Source: Lentisphaeria bacterium
Lineage (GTDB): Bacteria; Verrucomicrobiota; Lentisphaeria; Victivallales; UBA1829
NCBI GenBank assembly: GCA_017503375.1
Contig: JAFVTF010000074.1
Location: forward strand, 4,347-68,346
Direction of reading: 5' to 3'
DNA: 64,000 nt
Position numbers and translations under genes: made by a program. Every line of letters starts with the position of its first letter. Within the stretch, counting starts at the first letter, position 1. Positions 48,360 to 60,386 of the stretch are shown piece after piece. The notes under the pieces are model-generated. The model worked only from the letters and a program-made list of their open reading frames with translations. It was not told the DNA's origin and searched no databases.

Positions 48360-49283
48360 ATGCTTTCAGATATTGTTACAATCGTATTACTGCTTGTGTT
48401 TGCTGCGGTATTCTGGATCATTCCGAAAACAAGATCAGCGAATGGTAACTGGATGATCGCGCTCAAAACATTTCCGCTTGGATTTATTGCACTCATTTTA
48501 AGTGATAAACTGTTGGGAGCCGTTTGCTGTTTTATAAGTGAATACAGAATGGAAAATATTACTATTCCTTTCTGGTCAGAAATTGTAATTACGATTGCTG
48601 CGGCTTTCGTGGTAATGATTGGGGCAGGTATTTTCATTAAACACCGCTGGGGAACGGAAAAAAGATACAATCCTTTACCGTCAGTTGTTCTTTTTTTCGC
48701 ATTTTTGGTTCCTTTTATGATTTTCTTTGTACTTTTGTCTCTGGGATTATCTCTGCTCTCAATAAAAGATTACCGTTCCGATTGGTACAGCATCTGGCTG
48801 AAACTGGGAACGGAAGATCATGTTGCATTTGAACAACAGTCGATTCATCCTTATCTGGCAGAATATAACTACCGTTTGCGGTTTGTGCGAGATGGAAAAG
48901 TTTCCCGCAGATTGCTTTTTGTAAATACCGGAGGTAAGACTCACTTCAATATTTATAAATTGCAGGATGGGCGTTTTCTTTTCCGGGATAAAGATTGGGA
49001 TTATCTGGTCGATGTTTCCAAACAGGACGTTTCTGTTTTAAGAACTCTGGACAAGAGACTTTATGCAATTCCAGTTCCGAATGAAGATGTAAATTCCTGG
49101 AGCGGATTATATAAAATTGACGGGAAAGTTTATATGGAAGTCGGCTCAGAGAAAATTCCTGCAAATGATGTTACAGGAATTTTGGATCGAATGAAATACA
49201 TTGGATGTATCCGGGATAAGTTTTATTCAGCCGAAGTTCCGGAAGGTGCATTCAGGGAAATCAAATATTTTCAGAGAAGGTGA
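48360..49283 (+). CDS. hypothetical membrane protein (4 TM plus soluble C-terminal domain)
   Basis: Hydrophobic N-terminal half; AGGAGG RBS; TTGTAT-N16-TATATT promoter. Confidence 0.7.
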   Translation: MLSDIVTIVLLLVFAAVFWIIPKTRSANGNWMIALKTFPLGFIALILSDKLLGAVCCFISEYRMENITIPFWSEIVITIAAAFVVMIGAGIFIKHRWGTEKRYNPLPSVVLFFAFLVPFMIFFVLLSLGLSLLSIKDYRSDWYSIWLKLGTEDHVAFEQQSIHPYLAEYNYRLRFVRDGKVSRRLLFVNTGGKTHFNIYKLQDGRFLFRDKDWDYLVDVSKQDVSVLRTLDKRLYAIPVPNEDVNSWSGLYKIDGKVYMEVGSEKIPANDVTGILDRMKYIGCIRDKFYSAEVPEGAFREIKYFQRR

Positions 49284-49361
49284 TTGTATTTTTGAATACG
49301 GAAGAATTCAAAAATATCAAGATTTCCGGATTTTTCCGCTTTGAAAAGTCTGCATGAAAAC

Positions 49362-49394
49362 AAGGCTGCGGCAGAATTGAATTACCGCAGCCTT
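49362..49394. terminator. bidirectional stem-loop between convergent genes
   Basis: AAGGCTGCGG-N13-CCGCAGCCTT. Confidence 0.75.
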
Positions 49395-49432
49395 ATTGCT
49401 TTTTGAAATTGCCTCGGAAAAAGATTTTGTTT

Positions 49433-52400
49433 TTATTTTTGTTTTTGATTTTTCTCTTTCATTTTCCTTCTCAGGTACTGTACAACATCATTCTTTGTTG
49501 CATAATCTGCAGCTGTTTTTCCGAAGTTATCTTTATATACCGGATCTGCTCCATGAATTTCACAGAGATTTTTAACAATATCATCATCCTGCCTATCTCC
49601 TTTACAGGCTGCAATCAATGTTTTGTTGACATATTTCGGATCATTGCCAAGCCGGTCGAGCAAATAATGAACAGCTTTTTGGTTATTTTCTGTTGCAGCA
49701 TATTCCCAAACGGTCAAATTGTTATCATCCGTTCTGTCATCCAGCACGATATTATGTTTTTCAATCAAATAGCGAAGAGCAAAAAGATTCCTTTGATTTC
49801 CTGCGGCGGCATGAAGCAATGTCGTTTTGAACAGTTCCGGGTTATATTTCCCCTGGCTGATTTCCAGAACAACATTTTCATTGTCTGTCATTTGAACGAT
49901 TGTGTCAATTGTATCTGCAAAAATTTCAGGATAAGAATAATTTTTTAGCAGGTCATAAACAACTGCCATAGGAAGTTCAGCCGGATCTATGCGGCATTTT
50001 TCCAGAAAATAGGACAAAATATCATCAAAAGAAAAACATCCCTTTAAAGTTGAAATATGTTCTGAAAGTTTTTCGAGAATTTGTGAGGCTGACATTTCTT
50101 TGATGCCGATTTCTTCAAGCAATACTATCAGTACATTTGGGCTGTAACCGGAAAAATTGTCAATGAAATATTCCAAAAAGCTTTCTTCCCCGTCATTTTT
50201 TGCGGTCAGATATTCTCTGGGCCATTGCCATTCTATGAAGAAGAGGCGAAGCCAGGTTTCGGTATGCTCATTGATTTGCAATTTTTTCAGGATATCTTTG
50301 TCGGGGAAATAATTCCACAAATTCATTCCATTGGAAATAAGGTACTTCAATGTTTCGATTTTTCCACTATCCAAAAGAGATATAATGCAATCTGCATCAA
50401 GCTGAGCGATTAATCCTCTTGCATTTCCCATAAATCCCTGTTCAACGTATAATTTGACCAAAGAGATATCCTTTTCGGATATCCAATCAAATCTTCTGCA
50501 GCGAACCCCTTTGGAGAGAAAATATTCCAAACCTTCGCAAGTTGAGTTGCCGAATGTAAGATATGTATCCAGAATCGTATCTCCATCATTCGGATTCTGC
50601 CAATTTATATCAGAATCATATTCTTCAATAAACTTTTTGATCAGCGGAAGATTCTCAGCATTATTATAAACCAATTTGAATAATGGTGATTCCCCGTCAT
50701 TATTCAGCTGTTCAAATGCTTTGGGATTGGCATCCCGCAAAACTTTACACAGCTTTTCATTTCCATTGGAAGCCGCAATATGAAGAGGCCAGTCTCCATC
50801 CTTATTTGAAACTGAAACAGAATAGCCCTTCCGCTTGATGAGGTACTCTGCTGTATCCGCAGCCATCTCTTCATTCGTGTTTGCCAGCAGATGCAGCAGT
50901 GTATTACCTTTGCGGTCTGTATCCGGACAACGCATACCGGGCATTGTCCACAAAATATCCAATATTTTTTTTGTTTCCGGGAAAATTTCTTTCACAGCAT
51001 ATTGCATGATATGGATGCTGTCGCCCCAAGATATTTTCTCTCTGTTGATATCAAGTCCATGTTCAATACACAAGCGGCACAGTTTATCAAACCTTTCCAG
51101 AGACAAATCTCCCCGTTTTACCTTGTCAAGAAGCTCAAACACAATTGTTCCGTCTTCAGAAATAATGCTGGTATCGAGATGGTATTCTGTAACAAGCTTT
51201 TCAAAAAGATCGAAATTACTGTTTTGGGCTGCTTTCCAGAGTAAATTTTTATTCTCGTTATTTTTTTTATGGAGATCGACCCCTTTTTTGACAAGATAGT
51301 TGAAGAAATCTGCTTTTGCTTTCTTCGTTACATGAAAGAGCAAATTTTCGCCATTCTCATCAACCGCATTGACAGGAAGTTTCAATGTCTCTGTCAAATA
51401 TTTGAGTTTGTTGTATCCTCCCACACCGCTGAAAAGAGCATTTTTTCCATCAGATGCTTTTTTTTCGGGATCTGCCCCAAGCTTTAACAGAATATTCCAT
51501 GCGGCAATATCTCCATTTTCCACTGCTGTCATAAAAACAGTTTGATCTCTGATGTTTACTGCATTGATATCGACACCGAACTCCTGAACCAGTTTCCGGG
51601 TTATTTTTTCCAATTTCTTCAGCTTTTGCGGAGTATCAAATTCATCACAGTTTTCATACAGACAATGAAGAACTGTCTGTCCATCATCGTTTGCTTTTTT
51701 TACAGTTTCATGATTCGCCCTGTTCAATAATTTTTCAAATAAATCCAGGTTGTTATCACTGAAACTGTATTGGTTGAATATCGTATTGCCGTTTTCATCA
51801 GATACATTGACATCCGCTTTTTTCTTTATCAGCGTTTGTATAAATTTGGATACATTATCCCGAGATAACCAGACCTTAATCAGCGGTCCTCCGGCTTTGA
51901 CAGAATTGTGTATATTTATTTCAGCACCTGATTCCAGAAGATACCGGGCAATATCAATTTCCGATTTTCTGACAGCAATGGCCAGTGGCGTTCCTTGAGA
52001 ACTGATTGCATTCAATAATTCCGGATCCAAAGAACCATCTTCTTTTTTTCCGCAGAGAATTGCCACACATTCCTTGATATCTTCAAAAGGGACATTGCTG
52101 TCATGGCCTTTTACCGCATTATGTATGGGAAGCAATCCGGAATCATCCCGTGTCCGGAGCATTTCCGGATAACGGTTCAGAATGAATTTCAGTACCTGGG
52201 ATTTTCCTTTTTGTGCGGCTTTTGACAGAACATCTGCCTTACGACTCCACCGGCCTTTGTTTTTGCCTGTAATTGGAATCTTTAAAACATCCAGCATGTA
52301 TTCAAGAAATTCCACCTTGCCGGACTCACTGGCAGCATCAAGACATCTGGAATCCGCCATGGAGTCATCTTTGACCAATGCGGCAAAATCTTCAAATTGC

Positions 52401-54274
52401 ATATCTTTTATGAATCCGGCAATCATTTCATCATTCAACTGCAGAGATGAAATGATCGACGCATCCAACAGTTTTTTGACATAGGAATATGGTGTATCAT
52501 CAATGGAATCTTCAATTGTATCAGAATCTCCTTCCAGATATTCCGGCAATGCAAAAAGTTCTTTGGAAAAACGCATGAAAGTTTCTTCATACTGAACTTC
52601 TGCTAACGAGTTCAATATACTCTTGGCTTGCCTTGTGCAATCCCATTTGTCTCCGATCTGCCTTGTACGATGATATACGGAGATAAGAAAATCAGTCAGA
52701 TTTTCCGGGGTATTGTTGGCTTTCAGACGATTTACCCAAACATTCAATTCCGGAGTGTCATCCTCATTCCATCTGTGTTTTAAGGAACCTGCAATTGTTT
52801 TTATAATATCATCAGATTCAAAATCATTTAACTGCTTATCCAAAAGTCCGCTTTTAACAAAAGCACAGATGATGTCAATAGAAAAACTGCTGTCTGATTT
52901 CTCTGCCAGACTTTTCAAGAGAATTTCCTGCTGATTATCCGTCAGCCAATCTTTTAATTTGATGTCGATAAAAGATGCTGCCACCTTTGCAGCTGTTCCA
53001 CCCTGATGCAGACCGAATTGCAGCAGCTCAACGAATTGCCGGAACACTGCAGATTCATTCTCTATATTTATTTTTTCTGTTTCCTCATCGTCCTCATCGT
53101 CCTCATCGTCCTCATCGTCTAAACGATCAAATTCATTTATCAACTTTTCAAGCTCATCGTCTTCATCGTCTTCATCGTCTTTGTCGTCTTCATTGTCTTC
53201 CTCGTACTCTTCATCATCCTCTTCATCACCGTCATCGTTTGAATTCAAAAGATCTTCTATCAGTCTATCCAAAAGGTCCTGATCATCGTCTTCTTTTCCG
53301 GAATTCAGAATATCTGCGAAGAGCTTATCCTTTTGAGATTCAGCCATAAGGAGCAGAAGGTTTTCATTCATACTGTCAGAGGCAAGCTGCTTTTTCCACT
53401 GAGCGAAATTCCAAGTGAGATCATGTTCGCTGCAGACGGCAAGTGCTCTTTTGATTTTCACGATATCATCGTTGAAATTCAAAATCAATTCAAACAGGGA
53501 TGTTCCGCCAATATTATCCGGCAACTCATCCATTCTTTCCGCAAGAGCAGTAAAAAAGCTGATATTATTATTGACAAGAAGAGGATTCAATGCGTAATAA
53601 AGGAGCGGTTTCTGCCCGATTTTCCGGGAGAGATCATCATTTCCATCGAGAAGAATCCTCTTGAATGCCGGATAGTTCTGTCCGATCAAAGCATCAAAAA
53701 GAGTCAGATTTTCTGCGGAATCTTCCTGCTCTGCAACTTGTGGATTTTTCAGTAATTCCACCAGATAGTCGAGCCATTCACGGAATTCTGCCAGCTGGAT
53801 ATAGAATTCATTCTGCATTAATTCTCTGCTGCCGAAATCCAGGGCAAGTTTTCTGGAAAGATATTTGATATTATCTTCCGAAAAAGGCAGCATGAAATCT
53901 TTACTCAATGTTGAAAGCCGATCTTGCAGAACTTGTTTTTCCTCATCAGAACCGAGCTTGTTTAATATTGTTTTTCCCTGCATTCCCTGCAGTTTTTTCA
54001 ACGCTTCAAAGAATTTTTGCCAATTTCCCTGATCTGACACCTTGAAAACTCCTTTTTTCGGAGCCATATCTGCCAGTTCCATGACTTTCATCGGCGGCAG
54101 CGGAAGGTCCTGATCAATAAGCAGCAGGCATGACTGCAAACGCAGAGCCTTGCCGGTTTTTTCCAAATATTGATTCCCCGGAAGAGTATTTACAATATGA
54201 AAAACATCCTCAATTCTGAAATTTTCGGGGTCGGTAAATCTGTATGCAGCTTCAACAGCAGTAAAAGTATCCAT
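49433..54274 (-). CDS. 1613-aa ankyrin-repeat protein with a poly-acidic tract and an uncharacterised N-terminal region
   Basis: Repeated ankyrin signatures: GLLPIHNAV, GTPLAIAV, GQTVLHCL, QTVFMTAVENGD, GNTLLHLLA, GDWPLHIAASNGN, GESPLFKLV, TTLLHAAA, GKTAADYA. Confidence 0.85.
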   Translation of the reverse strand: MDTFTAVEAAYRFTDPENFRIEDVFHIVNTLPGNQYLEKTGKALRLQSCLLLIDQDLPLPPMKVMELADMAPKKGVFKVSDQGNWQKFFEALKKLQGMQGKTILNKLGSDEEKQVLQDRLSTLSKDFMLPFSEDNIKYLSRKLALDFGSRELMQNEFYIQLAEFREWLDYLVELLKNPQVAEQEDSAENLTLFDALIGQNYPAFKRILLDGNDDLSRKIGQKPLLYYALNPLLVNNNISFFTALAERMDELPDNIGGTSLFELILNFNDDIVKIKRALAVCSEHDLTWNFAQWKKQLASDSMNENLLLLMAESQKDKLFADILNSGKEDDDQDLLDRLIEDLLNSNDDGDEEDDEEYEEDNEDDKDDEDDEDDELEKLINEFDRLDDEDDEDDEDDEETEKINIENESAVFRQFVELLQFGLHQGGTAAKVAASFIDIKLKDWLTDNQQEILLKSLAEKSDSSFSIDIICAFVKSGLLDKQLNDFESDDIIKTIAGSLKHRWNEDDTPELNVWVNRLKANNTPENLTDFLISVYHRTRQIGDKWDCTRQAKSILNSLAEVQYEETFMRFSKELFALPEYLEGDSDTIEDSIDDTPYSYVKKLLDASIISSLQLNDEMIAGFIKDMQFEDFAALVKDDSMADSRCLDAASESGKVEFLEYMLDVLKIPITGKNKGRWSRKADVLSKAAQKGKSQVLKFILNRYPEMLRTRDDSGLLPIHNAVKGHDSNVPFEDIKECVAILCGKKEDGSLDPELLNAISSQGTPLAIAVRKSEIDIARYLLESGAEINIHNSVKAGGPLIKVWLSRDNVSKFIQTLIKKKADVNVSDENGNTIFNQYSFSDNNLDLFEKLLNRANHETVKKANDDGQTVLHCLYENCDEFDTPQKLKKLEKITRKLVQEFGVDINAVNIRDQTVFMTAVENGDIAAWNILLKLGADPEKKASDGKNALFSGVGGYNKLKYLTETLKLPVNAVDENGENLLFHVTKKAKADFFNYLVKKGVDLHKKNNENKNLLWKAAQNSNFDLFEKLVTEYHLDTSIISEDGTIVFELLDKVKRGDLSLERFDKLCRLCIEHGLDINREKISWGDSIHIMQYAVKEIFPETKKILDILWTMPGMRCPDTDRKGNTLLHLLANTNEEMAADTAEYLIKRKGYSVSVSNKDGDWPLHIAASNGNEKLCKVLRDANPKAFEQLNNDGESPLFKLVYNNAENLPLIKKFIEEYDSDINWQNPNDGDTILDTYLTFGNSTCEGLEYFLSKGVRCRRFDWISEKDISLVKLYVEQGFMGNARGLIAQLDADCIISLLDSGKIETLKYLISNGMNLWNYFPDKDILKKLQINEHTETWLRLFFIEWQWPREYLTAKNDGEESFLEYFIDNFSGYSPNVLIVLLEEIGIKEMSASQILEKLSEHISTLKGCFSFDDILSYFLEKCRIDPAELPMAVVYDLLKNYSYPEIFADTIDTIVQMTDNENVVLEISQGKYNPELFKTTLLHAAAGNQRNLFALRYLIEKHNIVLDDRTDDNNLTVWEYAATENNQKAVHYLLDRLGNDPKYVNKTLIAACKGDRQDDDIVKNLCEIHGADPVYKDNFGKTAADYATKNDVVQYLRRKMKEKNQKQK
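53075..53295 (-). repeat. in-frame 9-bp repeats encoding a D/E tract
   Basis: (TCATCGTCC)n and (TCATCGTCT)n on the + strand give DDEDDEDDEDDEE. Confidence 0.8.
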
Positions 54275-54289
54275 TTCTTTCTCCGGACA

Positions 54290-56170
54290 TTATTTGATGT
54301 GTACTTGTTTCCCGTATGGCACATTGATACGTTTTTGGGGGCCGACAAGACACCACAAAACATCATACGGCAGACGCATTTGAGGTATATCTAACTTCGG
54401 GTTGAATTCCCCATCTGTAATTACAATCACGCCTTTTACATCGGGTTCATTCAAGTATGCCAGCATACCGGGGGTCATGTCTGTTCCGCCCATGCCTTTG
54501 ATTGTATAATCACGCAACTCATCAGGTGTGATCTCTTTTATATCCTGAACAGCTTCATCGCATTCAATAATCTTGATCATATCAACAGCATTCCGTTCAC
54601 AGAATGCAGCAATTGCACCAAGCGCATCCGGCAGATAATTTCCCATACTGCCGCTGGTATCAAGCACTATGTTGATACTGTAACCGCAGCGGGCATGTCC
54701 GGGAAGACAGCATCGCGGATCCGGCAGGTCGCCTCTGCGGCTTGCTCTGTTAAAGGTTCTTACAATCCGGGAATATCCATCAAGCCAGTTCTGGAGAAAT
54801 GCCTGCCACGGCACATTGTAAAGTCCATCCCGGACTTCTACATCCTGAACAGTTCCCTGACCGGAGACAAGGGAGCTCGCCTGACGCCGGGCTTGTTCCA
54901 TTTCCTGGATTCTCCGGTTGATTTCTTCATCGCTTAATCCCGGACAGCGTTCTTTTAACTCATCCTTACTCCGGAGATCTCCGCAGCCCAGACCTTTTTC
55001 CTGTCCCGTTCCTTGTCCTTGCCCCGATCCTTGTCCACCTTGATCTGCACATTGCTTTGTTCTGAAAGTCAGAATTCCGTTCAAAGAAAGAGTTCCATCT
55101 TCTGCATAACGGAGTGTCAATGAACCTTCGAGAACAAAAGGCGGATAGATTATTTGTGAAACATGAAAAACGCTTTCTCCGCCGGGAAGAAGGTGTCCTG
55201 TATCTGAATTATCATTCCAGCTTATTGGAATTTCAACATCAAGCTGCTGTCCAGTATTTTCAAAGATGTCAAGATTGAGTTTCAGTTTGGAAAGAACTTC
55301 TGTAATTTCCTTTTTGCCGGGATTCATTTTTTCAACATCAATGACAAACACTTTTTCCGGTCTGTTTTTCCCATTATCCGTCAGCGGATAAATTTCACCA
55401 ACGGAAAGTATAAACGGGAAATTTTGTTTCTGCTTGCAGACGACACTCCCGTTCAAGGTGACATTTTTCAAAAAAATTTCCAGAGCCTTGCTTTCGGATT
55501 CACGGGAGAATATGAGCAGGGCTGCAACAATATCTTCCATACTCATTTCATCAATGGAAACAAATCTTTCAGCCGGCAGAAGACTTTCACAGAGTTTTTC
55601 CAACTTATATTCTTCAGCCGTTTTTTTACATTTTACTTCCAGTCCGATTTCAATTATATCCTCAGGCAAAGTGTCGGAACATCCGGGAGCTGTCAGGGAA
55701 ATTACCTTTGAGAAGTTATCCCAGTAACGGTCTTTTTCCCACCACATTCCGTCCTTCATTTCTTCCCGGATCGTTTTGAAGTTATGAGCTTCAAAATAGG
55801 TTGCCACCATATGATTGATCTGAGTGTCACTGGCTATATTAACCAGCTTACACAAATCCGGATCAGCTGTTTTTACACGGGAAAAGGTTCCCATATAATG
55901 GTGCCCCAGTTCATGTGCAATGATAAATGCTGTTTGCTTTTCAGAAAGTTGGGTCAGAAAAGCGGACCCGAATTCCATGCTTCCATCGGGGTATGTTTGT
56001 GCTGTTGCAACATCATCTTTGACAGAGATTTTACGATACCTTTCCGCCATCTCCAGCAGGGGTGCGAAATGGGGCATCACCATAATCATCAATGTCCGGG
56101 CATCAGCCAACTTCTTTTCAAGCGCCTTCCGGCTGAGCAGGGTATTAGTTTTGGATTTTTTATCAGCCAT
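54290..56170 (-). CDS. metallopeptidase (HExxH) plus vWA domain protein, DUF2201/COG3864 type
   Basis: TAQT..DG, AHELGH, NIASDTQIN; C-terminal RTFNRASRR, VLDTSGSM, GGTD, ITDG (MIDAS). Confidence 0.85.
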   Translation of the reverse strand: MADKKSKTNTLLSRKALEKKLADARTLMIMVMPHFAPLLEMAERYRKISVKDDVATAQTYPDGSMEFGSAFLTQLSEKQTAFIIAHELGHHYMGTFSRVKTADPDLCKLVNIASDTQINHMVATYFEAHNFKTIREEMKDGMWWEKDRYWDNFSKVISLTAPGCSDTLPEDIIEIGLEVKCKKTAEEYKLEKLCESLLPAERFVSIDEMSMEDIVAALLIFSRESESKALEIFLKNVTLNGSVVCKQKQNFPFILSVGEIYPLTDNGKNRPEKVFVIDVEKMNPGKKEITEVLSKLKLNLDIFENTGQQLDVEIPISWNDNSDTGHLLPGGESVFHVSQIIYPPFVLEGSLTLRYAEDGTLSLNGILTFRTKQCADQGGQGSGQGQGTGQEKGLGCGDLRSKDELKERCPGLSDEEINRRIQEMEQARRQASSLVSGQGTVQDVEVRDGLYNVPWQAFLQNWLDGYSRIVRTFNRASRRGDLPDPRCCLPGHARCGYSINIVLDTSGSMGNYLPDALGAIAAFCERNAVDMIKIIECDEAVQDIKEITPDELRDYTIKGMGGTDMTPGMLAYLNEPDVKGVIVITDGEFNPKLDIPQMRLPYDVLWCLVGPQKRINVPYGKQVHIK

Positions 56171-56197
56171 AGCATCATTCCTGAATAAAGTGAAAGA

Positions 56198-57385
56198 TTA
56201 CTGCAAACGCATACGGGCAATGGTTTCCGTTGCTCCGAATTGCTGAAGAGTTTTCAATACTTTTTCTGCAAGAATGATCATAAATTCTTTCGGCATGGAA
56301 CAGAAAAATGCATCAATTTTCTTTCCACCGAGTTTTTTTATTGCTTTGTAGGATGAACTGTCGGGATTTGCCAGAGCCTGCTGTATGCGGTCAAATATAA
56401 TGGCTCGTTCAAAAATCTTGCTTGAATTTGTCAAATCTTCTCCGCTGGTCTGGGGAATGGCATCCGGATGTTCAATATAATATTCCGCAGGTTTCATTTC
56501 CTGAAAATTATATTTCTTATAGGTACAGAATGCATCTGCATGCTGGGCTGAAATCGAACCGCGAGCCAAAACTTCCACATCTTTCTCTGTCAAACCGTCA
56601 GCCTCTGCGTTTTGCAGAAACGATACGGATTTATCCACTTTCTTTCCGTAAATGCTTTTGATTCGTGCAGCAGGATTTTTCCGGAATTCTTCCAGGGCAT
56701 CCATTGCCGCACTCAAAGCAGCCCAGGAACGCGGTGTGGAAAACGGTTCATTGGCATTTGAAGGAACCTTTGAACCGGTATCCGGATCTTTGTACTGCAG
56801 ACAGAAGTCGTTTGCTGCAATGAATGCGCGGATATCATCACGGACTTTTGTTTTTCCATTGTCATCTATTTGACTGCCCCATTCCAGCCATTCTTTCACA
56901 CTGACCTTGATATGGAGTATGATAACCCGGTTGACCAATGCTGTGGACATCGCTCTGACCATGGCACTGTCTTCAATATTGTTTCCTGCTGCAACAACAA
57001 TGGTTCCTTTGGGCAGTTTGCGTTCTCCGATTTTCCGGTCAAGCAGCAGAGAATACATTGCTTTCTGAACTTCCTGATTACAGATCGGCAGTTCATCCAA
57101 AAAAAGAACAAACGGCTTTCCATCCGCAGGAAGCAGGAGTTTCGGAGGATAAAATACAGAACGCTGGTTGTCACCTTCTCCTTCAATACGGGGGATACCG
57201 CTGATATCTTCCGGGGCAATCTGTGTACCGAGCAGTGAGCGGCATTCGTATCCAAGGGTGTCTGCGATTTGCTGCACAATATCACTTTTACCAACTCCGG
57301 GAGACGCAAGCATCAGGATGCTCTGATTGGTTCCCATAGACATGATAATCTGTTTTGCTTCTGCCAAAGTGACTTCTGTTTTCAT
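56198..57385 (-). CDS. MoxR-like AAA+ ATPase (AAA_5 type)
   Basis: Walker A ASPGVGKS, EDISGIP, Walker B FVLFLDEL, VAAGN, ALVNR, TPRSW. Confidence 0.92.
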   Translation of the reverse strand: MKTEVTLAEAKQIIMSMGTNQSILMLASPGVGKSDIVQQIADTLGYECRSLLGTQIAPEDISGIPRIEGEGDNQRSVFYPPKLLLPADGKPFVLFLDELPICNQEVQKAMYSLLLDRKIGERKLPKGTIVVAAGNNIEDSAMVRAMSTALVNRVIILHIKVSVKEWLEWGSQIDDNGKTKVRDDIRAFIAANDFCLQYKDPDTGSKVPSNANEPFSTPRSWAALSAAMDALEEFRKNPAARIKSIYGKKVDKSVSFLQNAEADGLTEKDVEVLARGSISAQHADAFCTYKKYNFQEMKPAEYYIEHPDAIPQTSGEDLTNSSKIFERAIIFDRIQQALANPDSSSYKAIKKLGGKKIDAFFCSMPKEFMIILAEKVLKTLQQFGATETIARMRLQ

Positions 57386-57439
57386 TCTCTACCCCTTCTT
57401 TGTATATTTCAGTTTGTTTTATATAAATATTTCAAACCT

Positions 57440-57467
57440 AATATAACAGGGATATCGGGAATTTCAA
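57440..57467 (-). promoter_or_regulatory. putative promoter of the MoxR-vWA-ankyrin operon
   Basis: TTGAAA-N16-TATATT with TG extension. Confidence 0.6.
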
Positions 57468-57584
57468 ACATTTATTTCATAAAAAAGAAGTTTTTACAGA
57501 CTTTAAATTGAAAAAAAACGAATGCATCTGCAGCAAAAAGTATAACGTTCGCAAAATTGCGCACTTTCTGAAAAACAGAGTCTG

Positions 57585-58445
57585 CTAGAAATTGATGGTC
57601 CGGATTTGAATTTCTTTTATTTTTGTATTCAGCAGTCTGGCAACAACCGGACATTTTGAAAGAAAAAGAAAGGCTATTGGACGATCAGACTCGTTCAATG
57701 TTTCAAAATTGCCCTGACCTTTTGCAATAATCAGATCCGCTGATTGAAAGACTTCCTGAAATTCCGGACTGGTCTGTTCGATCATCGTTCCCGGTATCGT
57801 GGCAGAACCATTGCTGATAAATCCTTTTGCAAAGCCGTCCAGACCGCAATTCTTCAATTCATCTTCAGTCACATCATTGATCACATTGCCGCCGCGGACA
57901 CCGATAATTGTTTTTTCACGATACGGTTCAATGAATATTCTGTCAAAGACAGCCTCTCCGCAATTATCCAGAAGGTACAGAATTGTTTTGGCAGAATCCA
58001 TACGTTCCTTAATTTTACGGGCAGCTGCAAGGTCTATTTCTCTGGAAAAAGAGTCGCGGATAAGCTGGATTGCCTGTGCGATATCCAGATCAGAGAAAAC
58101 TCCGAAGTCGATAATATTTCCGGCAACAGCCATGCGTATCCTGGATTCAAAACTGTCCGGGTCATACTCCGGTATTGACGGAAGATTTTCCACCAAACGC
58201 TGCGCCATACGGTTGGAACAGAGCTTTTCTTCACGGTAAAGATTTTTCTTTCCTGTATGTTTTTCCGCTATTTCCTGCAATTTGGAAAACAGGTATGGCG
58301 GCGGAACTGCCATAGAATGTTCCGCCAGCAGATGCAGAGATTCAGCCACAATTTTCTTTCTGATTACCGGATCATCTGTTGATCTTTGTGCCAGATCTAC
58401 AGCATTTCTTGCGAGACAGGGAAGACATTCCAGGTGAGCGTTCAT
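57585..58445 (-). CDS. DUF89/ARMT1-like damage-control phosphatase
   Basis: ECLPC, AGNIIDFG, LDNCGEAVFD, INDVT, IAKGQGNFETL, KCPVVA. Confidence 0.9.
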   Translation of the reverse strand: MNAHLECLPCLARNAVDLAQRSTDDPVIRKKIVAESLHLLAEHSMAVPPPYLFSKLQEIAEKHTGKKNLYREEKLCSNRMAQRLVENLPSIPEYDPDSFESRIRMAVAGNIIDFGVFSDLDIAQAIQLIRDSFSREIDLAAARKIKERMDSAKTILYLLDNCGEAVFDRIFIEPYREKTIIGVRGGNVINDVTEDELKNCGLDGFAKGFISNGSATIPGTMIEQTSPEFQEVFQSADLIIAKGQGNFETLNESDRPIAFLFLSKCPVVARLLNTKIKEIQIRTINF

Positions 58446-58448
58446 CGT

Positions 58449-60386
58449 TCATTCCACCTCAAGAGATATTAATGCAAAACCTTTGAAAACGGGAGCTGTA
58501 ATTTCAACAGAATCTCCATTTACAGAATATTCCACAGAAGTTCCGGACGGCGCAAGTGTAACAGATTTCACGTTTTTACCGGGAAGGTTCAGACGGAATT
58601 TGCCATCTATTACAGCCATTGCATCTTCCACAACTGTCGTTTCTCCACGCCGTTCCGGTGAATATGCTATGAGATTGACATTGATCCGTCCTGGCTGTTC
58701 CTGGACAGTTACCCGCACAAATCCGGGCAGATTGATATTTTCCAGCAGCAGCGGGCCGGAAACGGTTTTGATATAATTTTCCAGCAATGTCCGCAAATGG
58801 AGCGCGCCTCTTTGATAATAACCGGAGAAGATATCACCGGAACACCAGATACGGTTCTGTTTTTTTGTCAAAAACGGAATATCTGTTTCTTTGTCAGGCG
58901 GGATATAATACTGAGCAAAGATACCGTTCCACTCCTGTTTGTAATAAGCTCTTACAAGGGGAGCAACGAATTCTGCATCTGTTGTTTTTGCTTTTACGGC
59001 ACGTGCATAAAGAGAGTGGATCATCTGTTCGATATTTTCAGTCATTGCTCCGGAAAGAGTAAAGTAGAATGTTGTTTCATCCAGTTCCCCTTCATAGGTA
59101 ATACCGAGTTCATCTCCCAATGCTTCAGCAGCATTTTTACCGCATGCAATGATTGCTTTCCCGGCAGCAAGATGTTTCCGGATCCGCTCTTTCATACGGT
59201 CCGTAATGGTGATTTCTTCCGGCAGAATCAGCAGCTTGTACTGATCCCACTCTTTTTCATATTCTGAAAAGACAAGATCAAACTGGACTTTCAATTCATC
59301 CAGCATACGGACAGCACTGGTGATCGGCTTGCTTTGATGCAGAGTCAAACGATGTTCCGGATAGAGCAGGGCGACATCTGCAAGATTTTTTGCTCCGATG
59401 TGCCAGTCATCATAAATTCTCAGATGGGAATAAACTTCAGCAAGACGGTCGAACACAGCTTCATCTTTATCTCCGCGCGGATGGAAATGTCCGGCAAGAT
59501 TAGGCCGCATTCCATGCGCCAGACCATAGAACATATCATAGTCCAGACTGTTTGCTCCGCGTAATCCGCCGAAATCACCCCAGGCATAGAAACGTCCGGT
59601 CATATTCAGAACCTGCTTTTCCGGTCTGATATTCCGGATACAGTGCGCCATTGTCGGAAGAAATTCATAGCCCCAGCCGCCGGTCGGCAAACATTCACAA
59701 TCAAAGAAGGTATCAAGGTCTCTGACCGTTCCAAACGGAATACTGTTGAAATAGAGCATGGGATCCGGAATAATCTTTCTGACTTCTGCAGAAATATCTT
59801 CGCAGAGACGGATAACGGAAAGCCGGGTGTGTTCCACAACATCATCCAGTTTACTCCAGTCAAAGCCCTGTTTTTTCATGCTTTCCACGCATCTTTTGCA
59901 GACGCAGGGAAAGTTTTGCAGGCAATCAATGAAAAATCCATTGACGGGATAGTTTTCTGCAATTTCTCTAATCATGGCGATCAGGTGATCCCGGTAAGGG
60001 GAATTATAACACATTGTATAGCAATAAGGGGTGACTTTTCCATGCATTTCCTTGCCCGGCATATAGAGAGTACACCATTCAGGATGGTCAACAGATTCCA
60101 TGACACTGAGACCTCCATTGAGGTATGCAACCAGGGCAATATCCTTTCTCTTGCAGGCATCTGCCAGTTTTCCGAAAAGATCGTATGTCAAAGAGGGGTG
60201 TCTTGTTCCAATTTTTGTATTGTAATATGCCATACCCTGATTACAGCGGGCATGGAACCCGAGATAATCAACACCGCACCGTTTTATCTGATCTGTGAAA
60301 TATTCTGCATCAAAATCTTTTCCCACATCAGGATTGTTGATGTGGGTATGGTTATCATAGAATAATCCATATTTTACTGTATGCAT
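58449..60386 (-). CDS. GHL6/alpha-L-fucosidase-like glycoside hydrolase with trimerisation domain
   Basis: YDNHT, FHARCNQGMAYY, HPSL..DL, CYNSPY, GFFID, ECLPTGGWGY, TGRFYAWGDFGG. Confidence 0.75.
   Translation of the reverse strand: MHTVKYGLFYDNHTHINNPDVGKDFDAEYFTDQIKRCGVDYLGFHARCNQGMAYYNTKIGTRHPSLTYDLFGKLADACKRKDIALVAYLNGGLSVMESVDHPEWCTLYMPGKEMHGKVTPYCYTMCYNSPYRDHLIAMIREIAENYPVNGFFIDCLQNFPCVCKRCVESMKKQGFDWSKLDDVVEHTRLSVIRLCEDISAEVRKIIPDPMLYFNSIPFGTVRDLDTFFDCECLPTGGWGYEFLPTMAHCIRNIRPEKQVLNMTGRFYAWGDFGGLRGANSLDYDMFYGLAHGMRPNLAGHFHPRGDKDEAVFDRLAEVYSHLRIYDDWHIGAKNLADVALLYPEHRLTLHQSKPITSAVRMLDELKVQFDLVFSEYEKEWDQYKLLILPEEITITDRMKERIRKHLAAGKAIIACGKNAAEALGDELGITYEGELDETTFYFTLSGAMTENIEQMIHSLYARAVKAKTTDAEFVAPLVRAYYKQEWNGIFAQYYIPPDKETDIPFLTKKQNRIWCSGDIFSGYYQRGALHLRTLLENYIKTVSGPLLLENINLPGFVRVTVQEQPGRINVNLIAYSPERRGETTVVEDAMAVIDGKFRLNLPGKNVKSVTLAPSGTSVEYSVNGDSVEITAPVFKGFALISLEVE

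Follow-up and report, generated by a model that had tools for sequence, protein, structure and literature searches.

MoxR-type AAA+ ATPases are client-specific remodellers in NorQ-NorD, CbbQ-CbbO and CoxD-CoxE, where the MoxR gene lies beside the gene of an adaptor with a von Willebrand factor A (vWA) domain and its metal-ion-dependent adhesion site (MIDAS), and Midasin works on the same principle, as an ATP-driven motor that hooks a partner protein through its MIDAS. Both Midasin and RavA-ViaA appear among the MoxR-vWA systems in the accessible text of Kaur et al. 2020 (PMC7159879), which describes ternary MoxR-vWA conflict systems with VMAP, iSTAND, FtsH or a beta-propeller as third component, the FtsH type being reported in planctomycetes. 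According to the same text (PMC7159879), the vWA protein may carry a peptidase in an 'effector position', and the large third component is thought to be a sensor or coordinator. A pair of related genes is noted in group 2.2 jumbo phages, with a role in virion assembly or processing proposed in one speculative sentence of the accessible part of Iyer et al. 2021 (PMC7824862), and the accessible part of a 2025 preprint reports a phage MoxR ATPase needed to overcome a predicted defence system. Here we describe a unit of ~8 kb (49433..57467, minus strand) in a stretch of 64,000 nt, hereafter the window, from contig JAFVTF010000074.1 of a Lentisphaeria bacterium (assembly GCA_017503375.1; 3.6 Mb, 128 contigs, 93.6% complete). 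It encodes a MoxR-type ATPase, a protein with zincin peptidase and vWA domains, and a giant ankyrin protein. The two gene families are already known, as is the concept of a ternary MoxR-vWA system; what is new is the ankyrin protein as third component, a ternary variant that was not found in the searchable literature, supplements aside, just as the initial annotation of this DNA knew of no described system of this kind. We tentatively favour, as a reading that falls a little short of probable, that the three proteins form one machine in which MoxR is the motor, the zincin-vWA protein is adaptor and protease, and the ankyrin giant is the specificity subunit.

The three genes are co-directional, in the order ATPase, vWA, ankyrin, with gaps of 27 bp and then 15 bp, and the unit has the following features:

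56198..57385, minus strand: MoxR-type AAA+ ATPase (P0001), 395 aa; open reading frame (ORF) call and Pfam AAA_5
54290..56170, minus strand: zincin-vWA protein (P0002), 626 aa; DUF2201_N and DUF2201, phrog_1314
49433..54274, minus strand: giant ankyrin/alpha-solenoid protein (P0003), 1613 aa; Ank_2 and four collinear full-length orthologues
57440..57467, minus strand: sigma-70-like promoter candidate, TTGAAA, 16 nt, TG-n-TATATT, within a 199-bp intergenic region
57392..57397, minus strand: Shine-Dalgarno-like AAGGGG, 6 nt ahead of the ATPase start codon, read from the sequence
49360..49396, minus strand: intrinsic-terminator-like hairpin, 14-bp stem, 9-nt loop, then GUUUUCA

ORF coordinates, Pfam profiles and motif reading agree with the initial annotation on the ORFs, their order, gaps and domain names, and on a self-contained unit made of the parts that it had listed. 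Shine-Dalgarno-like sites precede each gene in turn (AAGGGG, AGGAA and GGAGA), and a terminator scan found none in the 15-bp gap between the vWA and ankyrin genes. The stem-loop announced after the ankyrin gene was recovered 40-75 nt past the stop codon (-25 kcal/mol, z -2.9, equalled by 3/200 shuffles); the consensus terminator scan overlooked it because of its loop of 9 bases. The announced promoter stood in part: the site at 57467..57440 is present, with 10/12 consensus matches and an extended-10 TG, and promoter-like sites are not enriched in the region (23 found, 23.3 +/- 5.4 expected from shuffles). A contig from an RNA library also extends upstream of the candidate -10 box, reaching 57466. 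The promoter call is therefore one of position only. No 19-residue stretch of the three proteins reached a Kyte-Doolittle mean of 1.6, a crude measure that supports the earlier statement that signal peptides are absent, and the proteins, with neither signal peptide nor membrane segment, are predicted to be cytoplasmic.

Each of the three genes is partly covered by contigs of two metatranscriptome libraries, which also span the two gene junctions (run X19 at 55826-56343, run X20 at 54222-54702); they are a hint only, since such libraries can hold DNA and the contigs do not prove a single transcript. Gaps in this cover, for example at 57542-58642 in run X19, are no evidence for transcript ends.

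The ATPase matches AAA_5 (PF07728) with 33.8 bits (cut-off 22), its translation contains Walker A GVGKS and Walker B LFLDE, and the gene adjoining it across the 27-bp gap encodes a vWA-domain partner, as in the MoxR type. It also matches phrog_1297 at 7e-60 over residues 2-382, and Midasin is its sole match in the PDB by sequence (E 1.4e-4). From these features it is a predicted MoxR-type motor, for which our model assumes a hexamer.

The 626-aa protein matches DUF2201_N (PF13203; 37.8 bits, cut-off 23.2), DUF2201 (PF09967; 53.9 bits, cut-off 26.4) and phrog_1314 (3.5e-42), and a PDB search by sequence returned no solved or characterised relative (best E 0.32). An AlphaFold2 model based on 48 sequences, with a mean predicted local distance difference test score (pLDDT) of 75, has the order zincin, helical segment, beta-sandwich, disordered linker, helical segment and vWA domain:

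55760..56131, minus strand: zincin domain, residues 14-137, with HELGH at 55901-55915 and D115; pLDDT mostly 80-96
55058..55456, minus strand: clade-specific insert, residues 239-371, modelled as a beta-sandwich of eight strands
54983..55051, minus strand: Gly/Gln-rich disordered linker, residues 374-396, length varying by strain; pLDDT <50
54296..54682, minus strand: vWA domain, residues 497-625, with MIDAS DTSGS at 54647-54661; fold matches

The HExxH and vWA/MIDAS motifs claimed for this protein are both intact, as HELGH (residues 86-90) with D115 and as DTSGS (residues 504-508). In an alignment of 48 family members, H86 is kept in 48/48, E87 in 43/48, H90 and D115 each in 46/48, all four throughout the clade of the window protein, and the MIDAS residues D504, S506 and S508 each in 48/48. 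With these intact motifs the zincin peptidase is predicted to be catalytically intact. The vWA domain aligned by VIA-align with Z 11-12 to solved vWA and integrin I domains, 10.0 to the NorD vWA domain and 9.3 to the MDN1 MIDAS domain; in Foldseek the protein model had the CLCA1 vWA domain as top match (E 1.1e-4), with the MDN1 MIDAS domain also listed, and the fold-match lists were taken up wholly by the vWA domain. The beta-sandwich insert had no match in the ESM Atlas. Most of residues 248-397 are absent from P0009, a 478-aa sister protein, and since this region is missing in the nearest shorter relative the beta-sandwich and linker are specific to the giant-ankyrin clade. The insert and the giant ankyrin gene thus co-occur in one clade.

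The third protein is the largest of the unit, and three regions were distinguished in it:

53300..54274, minus strand: family-specific N-terminal helical domain, residues 1-325; all-helical model
53060..53296, minus strand: acidic disordered stretch, residues 327-405, 63% Asp+Glu, length-variable; pLDDT <50
49436..52357, minus strand: ankyrin array, ~residues 640-1612; Pfam stretches and invariant columns

Ank_2 (PF12796) matches it in 7 stretches with 174.5 bits, and a Pfam scan found no enzyme domain in its 1613 residues. The N-terminal 660 residues are modelled as helical repeats (pLDDT 74) broken by the acidic disordered stretch; they had no Foldseek match at E <= 0.001, the top rows being HEAT/ARM-type solenoids, and no usable match in the ESM Atlas. 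Four full-length orthologues are collinear throughout, with 36-41% identity, which argues that the giant protein is a specific conserved entity and no loose heap of repeats. Across them, 18-32% of the positions in the N-terminal domain (1-325) are invariant. The best-conserved segment is a Trp/Phe-rich block, W-L-x-L-F-F-I-x-W-Q-W (residues 1341-1351, 50222-50254), invariant in 4/4 orthologues and a candidate docking or functional site. Models of Legionella Dot/Icm ankyrin effectors (NCBIfam) were rejected, with 64.7 bits against a cut-off of 1400, a match that the repeats alone explain.

Such a protein could also be regarded as a client: the ankyrin giant would be a substrate folded, assembled or matured by the pair, for example by a cut near the disordered linker, and the scaffold would be the end product. 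NorQ/NorD and CbbQ/CbbO are MoxR-vWA pairs that act on a specific, often nearby-encoded protein. The same holds for Midasin and RavA-ViaA, both of them named in Kaur et al. 2020 (PMC7159879). The conserved and collinear ankyrin protein, the long disordered stretch between its two folded parts and the likeness of the vWA fold to the NorD vWA domain (Z 10.0) would all suit a client. However, the acidic stretch is absent from two of the four orthologues (P0011 and P0018), which shows that neither cleavage nor MIDAS binding has a conserved site there, and a 1613-aa repeat scaffold lacking an enzyme domain would be an odd end product. We consider the client role the main rival of the favoured reading, possible, though on the whole doubtful.

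The vWA protein is rare among relatives. Used as query, it had any match in 8/41 related genomes (the window's own included) and no full-length match in the 40 relatives, the best being 39% identity over residues 439-625; the DUF2201 profile is present in 31/401 genomes sampled from the phylum. The patchiness for which the initial annotation had proposed to look is therefore real. Among 5.8 billion clustered proteins there are five full-length relatives, with 47-96% identity and all metagenomic, plus one distant 478-aa form. Scanning one genome per species with the vWA alignment gave only two distant loci, with 471-488-aa forms, and the 626-aa type was absent from scans of JGI metagenome contigs and IMG/VR viral contigs. 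For the N-terminal 660 residues of the ankyrin protein, 7 matches were found in 1.84 billion representatives, two of them full-length, with a third full-length one as a cluster member. The few named relatives of the window proteins are labelled Thermoguttaceae, Planctomycetia, Planctomycetales or Gemmataceae.

The locus itself was detected as DNA in 20 run rows from 9 studies, labelled animal gut metagenomes, which makes an uncultured gut bacterium its probable host; one study is RNA-only, and the other 8 have the locus in DNA runs. Other strains, as seen in their DNA contigs, have the identical three-gene layout. One such contig (run X16) has small deletions at 53127-53207, within the acidic stretch of the ankyrin protein, and another (run X18) has 24 nt inserted at 55015, within the Gly-rich linker of the vWA protein.

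In a diverged lineage, orthologues of the ATPase (P0035, 79.4% identity), the vWA protein (P0006, 57.0%) and the ankyrin protein (P0013, 41.9%) have one common signature (Logan+ENA, 2 contigs, the longest 12,867 bp), and the three genes need ~7.7 kb and so fit that contig. A second ATPase and vWA protein (P0038, 67.3%; P0008, 51.1%) both have a single Logan contig of 5963 bp. Such shared signatures are otherwise hard to explain, and the genes therefore appear to travel together; by this circumstantial evidence the ankyrin gene apparently stays with the pair in the diverged lineage. The initial annotation had seen its three-part system as threatened if the ankyrin gene were unlinked in other genomes and not co-transcribed, and both the shared signature and the recurrence of ankyrin genes beside paralogous pairs point the other way. 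The identity gradient within this one lineage (ATPase 79%, vWA 57%, ankyrin 42%) is consistent with a conserved motor and a faster-evolving specificity subunit.

That recurrence came from a neighbourhood survey for ankyrin third genes, which had been proposed with the first description of the unit. It covered 47 loci around DUF2201 matches, six of which (L027, L030, L033, L050, L053 and L060) were left out since no DUF2201 ORF was found, giving 42 sites in 41 loci and, with the window, 43 sites. Ank_2-confirmed genes lie beside or near MoxR/zincin-vWA genes at 5/43 sites, namely the window and four others:

L020: ankyrin neighbour of 496 aa, upstream, 4-bp overlap
L056: ankyrin neighbour of 497 aa, upstream
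L044: ankyrin neighbour of 426 aa, upstream, one small ORF in between
L041: ankyrin neighbour of 435 aa, two genes off; no ATPase seen

A sixth candidate site, L037, has only a weak single-repeat ankyrin match. Three neighbours called as ankyrin by jackhmmer (L020:11305-12303, L020:12322-13257 and L023:2098-2475) were dropped, as Pfam gave no confirmation. Ankyrin ORFs number only 2-7 per genome in six of the genomes concerned, so that 0.27-0.71 ankyrin neighbours would be expected; the observed ones are 7-18x commoner (P(>=4) = 0.0002-0.006), figures that overstate the case because related genomes are not independent.

These results bear on the possibility that the pair works alone and the ankyrin gene is merely downstream. 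Ankyrin-free two-gene pairs on three plasmids and the wide differences among third genes would agree with a chance neighbour, but the 15-bp gap holds no terminator and its junction is bridged by an RNA-library contig, one contig signature is common to all three orthologues, and ankyrin genes are enriched beside such pairs. This explanation is already disfavoured and appears highly improbable.

A tree of 48 zincin-vWA proteins was built with IQ-TREE. In it, the clade with the giant ankyrin gene (Shimodaira-Hasegawa-like approximate likelihood-ratio test, SH-aLRT, 99) is far from the clade of L020 and L056 (SH-aLRT 100), and an approximately unbiased (AU) test rejects a single clade of all ankyrin-linked members (p 4e-6), a group named only after the first tree had been inspected. 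By the two separate branches and the AU test, the ankyrin partnership arose at least twice. The ankyrin-linked pairs at L020 (3503-4975) and L056 (4665-6152) have HNxxH for HExxH, the catalytic Glu being replaced by Asn, with the MIDAS kept. The short ankyrin partners of the other pairs (426-497 aa) and these peptidases lacking the Glu also speak against the ankyrin protein as a client to be matured. Separately, the vWA proteins of L031 and L034 have HTxxT.

Other genes beside the paralogous pairs were as follows:

UvrD helicase, upstream: L021, L025, L029 (window's own genome), L043, L047, L058; clear Pfam matches
D5-type primase: L022, L057; Pfam match
FtsK: L020; Pfam match
SWIM zinc finger: L040, L042; Pfam match
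PcfJ: L045; Pfam match
Cdc48-like double AAA: L037, L049 (ClpP too in L049); Pfam match
HEAT: L048; weak
Sel1: L062; weak, under cut-off
Leucine-rich repeat (LRR): L017; weak, under cut-off
Proteins of 270-1000 aa: several loci; no family

The UvrD-type helicase (673-735 aa) overlaps the MoxR start and the zincin-vWA gene then follows, at 6/43 sites that form one tree branch; in L029 this triad occupies contig C109 216-4779. The helicase of the triad matches GajB-type PADLOC models (5.8e-72), but neither of its two partners has a PADLOC match. In L029 and L044 the pair is followed by a gene for a further, small VWA protein. The Cdc48-like double-AAA genes (728 and 789 aa) are directly upstream of the pairs in L037 (9734-11920) and L049 (9922-12985), the latter adjoined by ClpP. 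One genome, G023, has at least six separate MoxR/zincin-vWA pairs (8 matches; C166, C135, C329, C357, C37 and C370) with differing third genes, which is a local expansion of the module. The window's own genome has a third DUF2201 match (G000:C123:20209-20454), a 93-aa open frame that may be a gene fragment.

The matches of the ATPase and vWA proteins to PHROG 1297 and 1314 place the pair, at profile level, in a phage/plasmid-type module, a point that the initial annotation had missed. By tblastn, the ATPase was found in 831/50,697 phage records, from N4-like phages, PA5oct-like jumbo phages and others, and in 107/72,556 plasmid records, at ~27-38% identity in both, and the vWA protein in only 1 phage record. 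On the three plasmids examined, the closest sequence relatives of the ATPase belong to two-gene pairs with no ankyrin gene. The closest ATPase in the databases (37.5% identity) is in L066 (MT835968.1, a 15,153-bp record), beside a vWA protein of 609 aa in which two stretches are of zincin type. The entry bears the title 'UNVERIFIED: Bacteriophage sp.' but looks bacterial (transketolase halves, FGGY kinase), and its pair is surrounded by four calcineurin-like phosphoesterase paralogues.

The flanks of the unit encode, at 38.8-64 kb of the window, transporters (ABC/HlyD, EamA, NhaP, MatE), an SLT transglycosylase, a GHL6-type hydrolase, a family 4 glycosyltransferase and an ARMT1-like phosphatase, and no phage or plasmid genes were found in their annotated part, about 36-64 kb of the window; the genes thus do not lie in a recognisable phage or prophage within those flanks. 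The guanine plus cytosine (GC) content is 0.446 for the ATPase and for the vWA gene, equal to that of their neighbours, 0.393 for the ankyrin gene and 0.429 for the window, and the base composition of the three genes compared with the window gives no sign of recent transfer. Two same-genus genomes contain orthologues (76-79%) of the NhaP and GHL6 neighbours in different surroundings, and the ARMT1-like neighbour was found in neither; since the flank genes have no shared synteny there, insertion borders of the unit cannot be drawn. An ORF of 307 aa (48360-49283, plus strand; GC 0.387), assigned to no family by Pfam or PADLOC, converges on the ankyrin gene, and the hairpin that it shares with that gene is covered, along with its 3' end, by an RNA-library contig (49155-49417).

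Whether or not the ankyrin protein takes part, the pair might instead serve a phage or plasmid task such as particle assembly or counter-defence, and be chromosomal cargo or a domesticated remnant here. The matches to phrog_1297 and phrog_1314, the phage and plasmid records, the virion-assembly proposal in the accessible part of Iyer et al. 2021 (PMC7824862), the accessible part of the preprint on a phage MoxR ATPase, the D5-type primase, FtsK and PcfJ genes adjoining paralogous pairs, and the patchiness of the gene set would fit this origin. Yet transporters and sugar-related enzymes flank the unit, the GC content of the ATPase and vWA genes is that of their neighbours, the locus recurs in DNA runs of 8 studies, and RNA-library contigs cover all three genes. 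A leftover or cargo of a mobile element is, on this evidence, unlikely.

A role in conflict was also considered, since the initial annotation had proposed a conflict or proteostasis system and a search for defence islands. Among the PADLOC-DB v2.0.0 models, IetA was the single match of the ATPase (E 0.0096), and the vWA protein had none; where the ankyrin protein matched (PDC-M72A, Ankyrin), its repeats account for the score. Five further ATPase/vWA pairs of relatives had no PADLOC match at E <= 0.001, save the 604-aa MoxR of L062 (weak, 3.5e-4 and 9.5e-4). Within 12 flanking proteins there was one PADLOC match, a generic ABC ATPase/transporter, and no defence island, so the search gave the conflict proposal no direct support. 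The patchiness and the phage/plasmid origin of the pair are compatible with a conflict role, as a fit and not as proof, and the ankyrin array as sensor with the zincin as gated effector, as first suggested, would be conjecture.

We return to the reading that the three proteins work together as one machine. It is supported by the tight gaps, the Shine-Dalgarno site of each gene, the single terminator and the junction-bridging RNA-library contigs; by the shared contig signatures, the dedicated collinear ankyrin orthologues and the recurrent ankyrin neighbours; and by the intact catalytic and MIDAS motifs, the confident vWA fold, the co-occurrence of insert and scaffold, and the rate gradient. 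What the data show is the gene layout, the domains with their intact motifs, how rare and patchy the set is, an apparently conserved linkage and the recurring ankyrin neighbours. Concerning the physical complex, its direction of action, its substrate and its biological role, we infer the following. The unit would be an accessory cytoplasmic machine that remodels and cleaves proteins, in which a MoxR hexamer would provide ATP-driven force. The 626-aa protein would be the adaptor, holding a partner through its vWA/MIDAS site and bearing the zincin peptidase with its intact motif. The 1613-aa protein would be a dedicated third subunit, conferring specificity by binding the protein or proteins to be remodelled or cut, and it may dock on the beta-sandwich insert peculiar to its vWA clade. 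The motor-adaptor pair would derive from a common phage/plasmid module, with the giant scaffold gained here, and conflict with, or control by, mobile elements would be the most likely setting.

Several observations weigh against this reading. There is no defence-island context and no meaningful PADLOC match for the ATPase or the vWA protein. The third genes beside paralogous pairs are very diverse (UvrD, D5-type primase, FtsK, SWIM, PcfJ and others), and the ankyrin-free plasmid pairs indicate that the pair can function without an ankyrin protein. The Glu to Asn change in L020 and L056 implies that cleavage is not general among ankyrin-linked pairs. The linkage in relatives is circumstantial, as it consists of matching contig signatures and not of gene order; the RNA-library contigs hint at one transcript and could derive from DNA; the enrichment is inflated by related genomes, and the group in the AU test was chosen after the tree. 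Finally, conservation and collinearity mark the ankyrin array, with no sign of diversification or hypervariability, which suits a scaffold or client equally with a sensor.

A broader proposal, which we regard as speculative and rather unlikely, is that MoxR and zincin-vWA pairs with solenoid-repeat proteins (ankyrin here; LRR, HEAT and Sel1 elsewhere) constitute a widespread undescribed class of ATP-gated, adaptor-directed proteolytic systems. A repeat protein would recognise a foreign or host protein and the pair would remodel or cleave it, cells and phages would use such systems on opposite sides of the same conflicts, and among the cellular examples the window unit would be the largest and the best preserved. 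MoxR/zincin-vWA pairs are very common, yet the literature found on it amounts to one virion-assembly sentence and one screen match; titles and abstracts on DUF2201 revealed no functional study, and no printed description of the pair was found beyond Iyer et al. 2021. The cellular version, with a single huge conserved partner and intact protease and MIDAS motifs, offers a concrete three-protein set for questions of binding and cleavage. If repeat proteins are specificity subunits, this would explain the many different third genes of the pair and would give a handle on its role in phages.

When compared with known systems, the unit resembles Midasin/Rea1 in that Midasin is the only PDB sequence match of the ATPase and the MDN1 MIDAS domain is among the fold matches, whereas Midasin, a eukaryotic protein, is a single giant polypeptide that lacks a peptidase. 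CLCA1 also has zincin and vWA domains in one protein, and its vWA domain is the top Foldseek match, a likeness that may reflect the compact vWA fold alone; CLCA1, whose zincin protease performs self-cleavage, is in contrast a secreted animal protein with no AAA+ partner. With RavA-ViaA, NorQ-NorD, CbbQ-CbbO and CoxD-CoxE the unit shares a MoxR gene beside a vWA/MIDAS adaptor gene, and the vWA model aligns to NorD (9qh8) with Z 10.0, but adaptors of the RavA-ViaA/NorQ-NorD type are not known to carry a zincin domain, and they act on metallo-enzymes or respiratory complexes instead of a repeat scaffold.

The ternary systems in the accessible text of Kaur et al. 2020 (PMC7159879) have the same three-part logic of a MoxR ATPase, a vWA protein that can bear a peptidase and a large third component. 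Unlike them, the window unit has a third protein that matches ankyrin profiles only and none of the four described types, the word 'ankyrin' occurring 0 times in that text. In addition, bpMoxR (PF20030, the sole such profile compared) reaches 22.3 bits, below its cut-off of 27, and no effector-associated domains (Pfam) or accessory peptide systems were found. As to effector domains, the zincin is placed N-terminally of the vWA domain, a position taken by rare metallopeptidase effectors in that text, and Pfam gave no further effector or adaptor domain. The phage pair of PHROG 1297 and 1314 is alike in both families at profile level, in gene order and in the kept HExxH and MIDAS motifs, whereas the window unit is located among cellular genes, has a beta-sandwich insert in its vWA protein, and is coupled downstream to a 1613-aa ankyrin protein.

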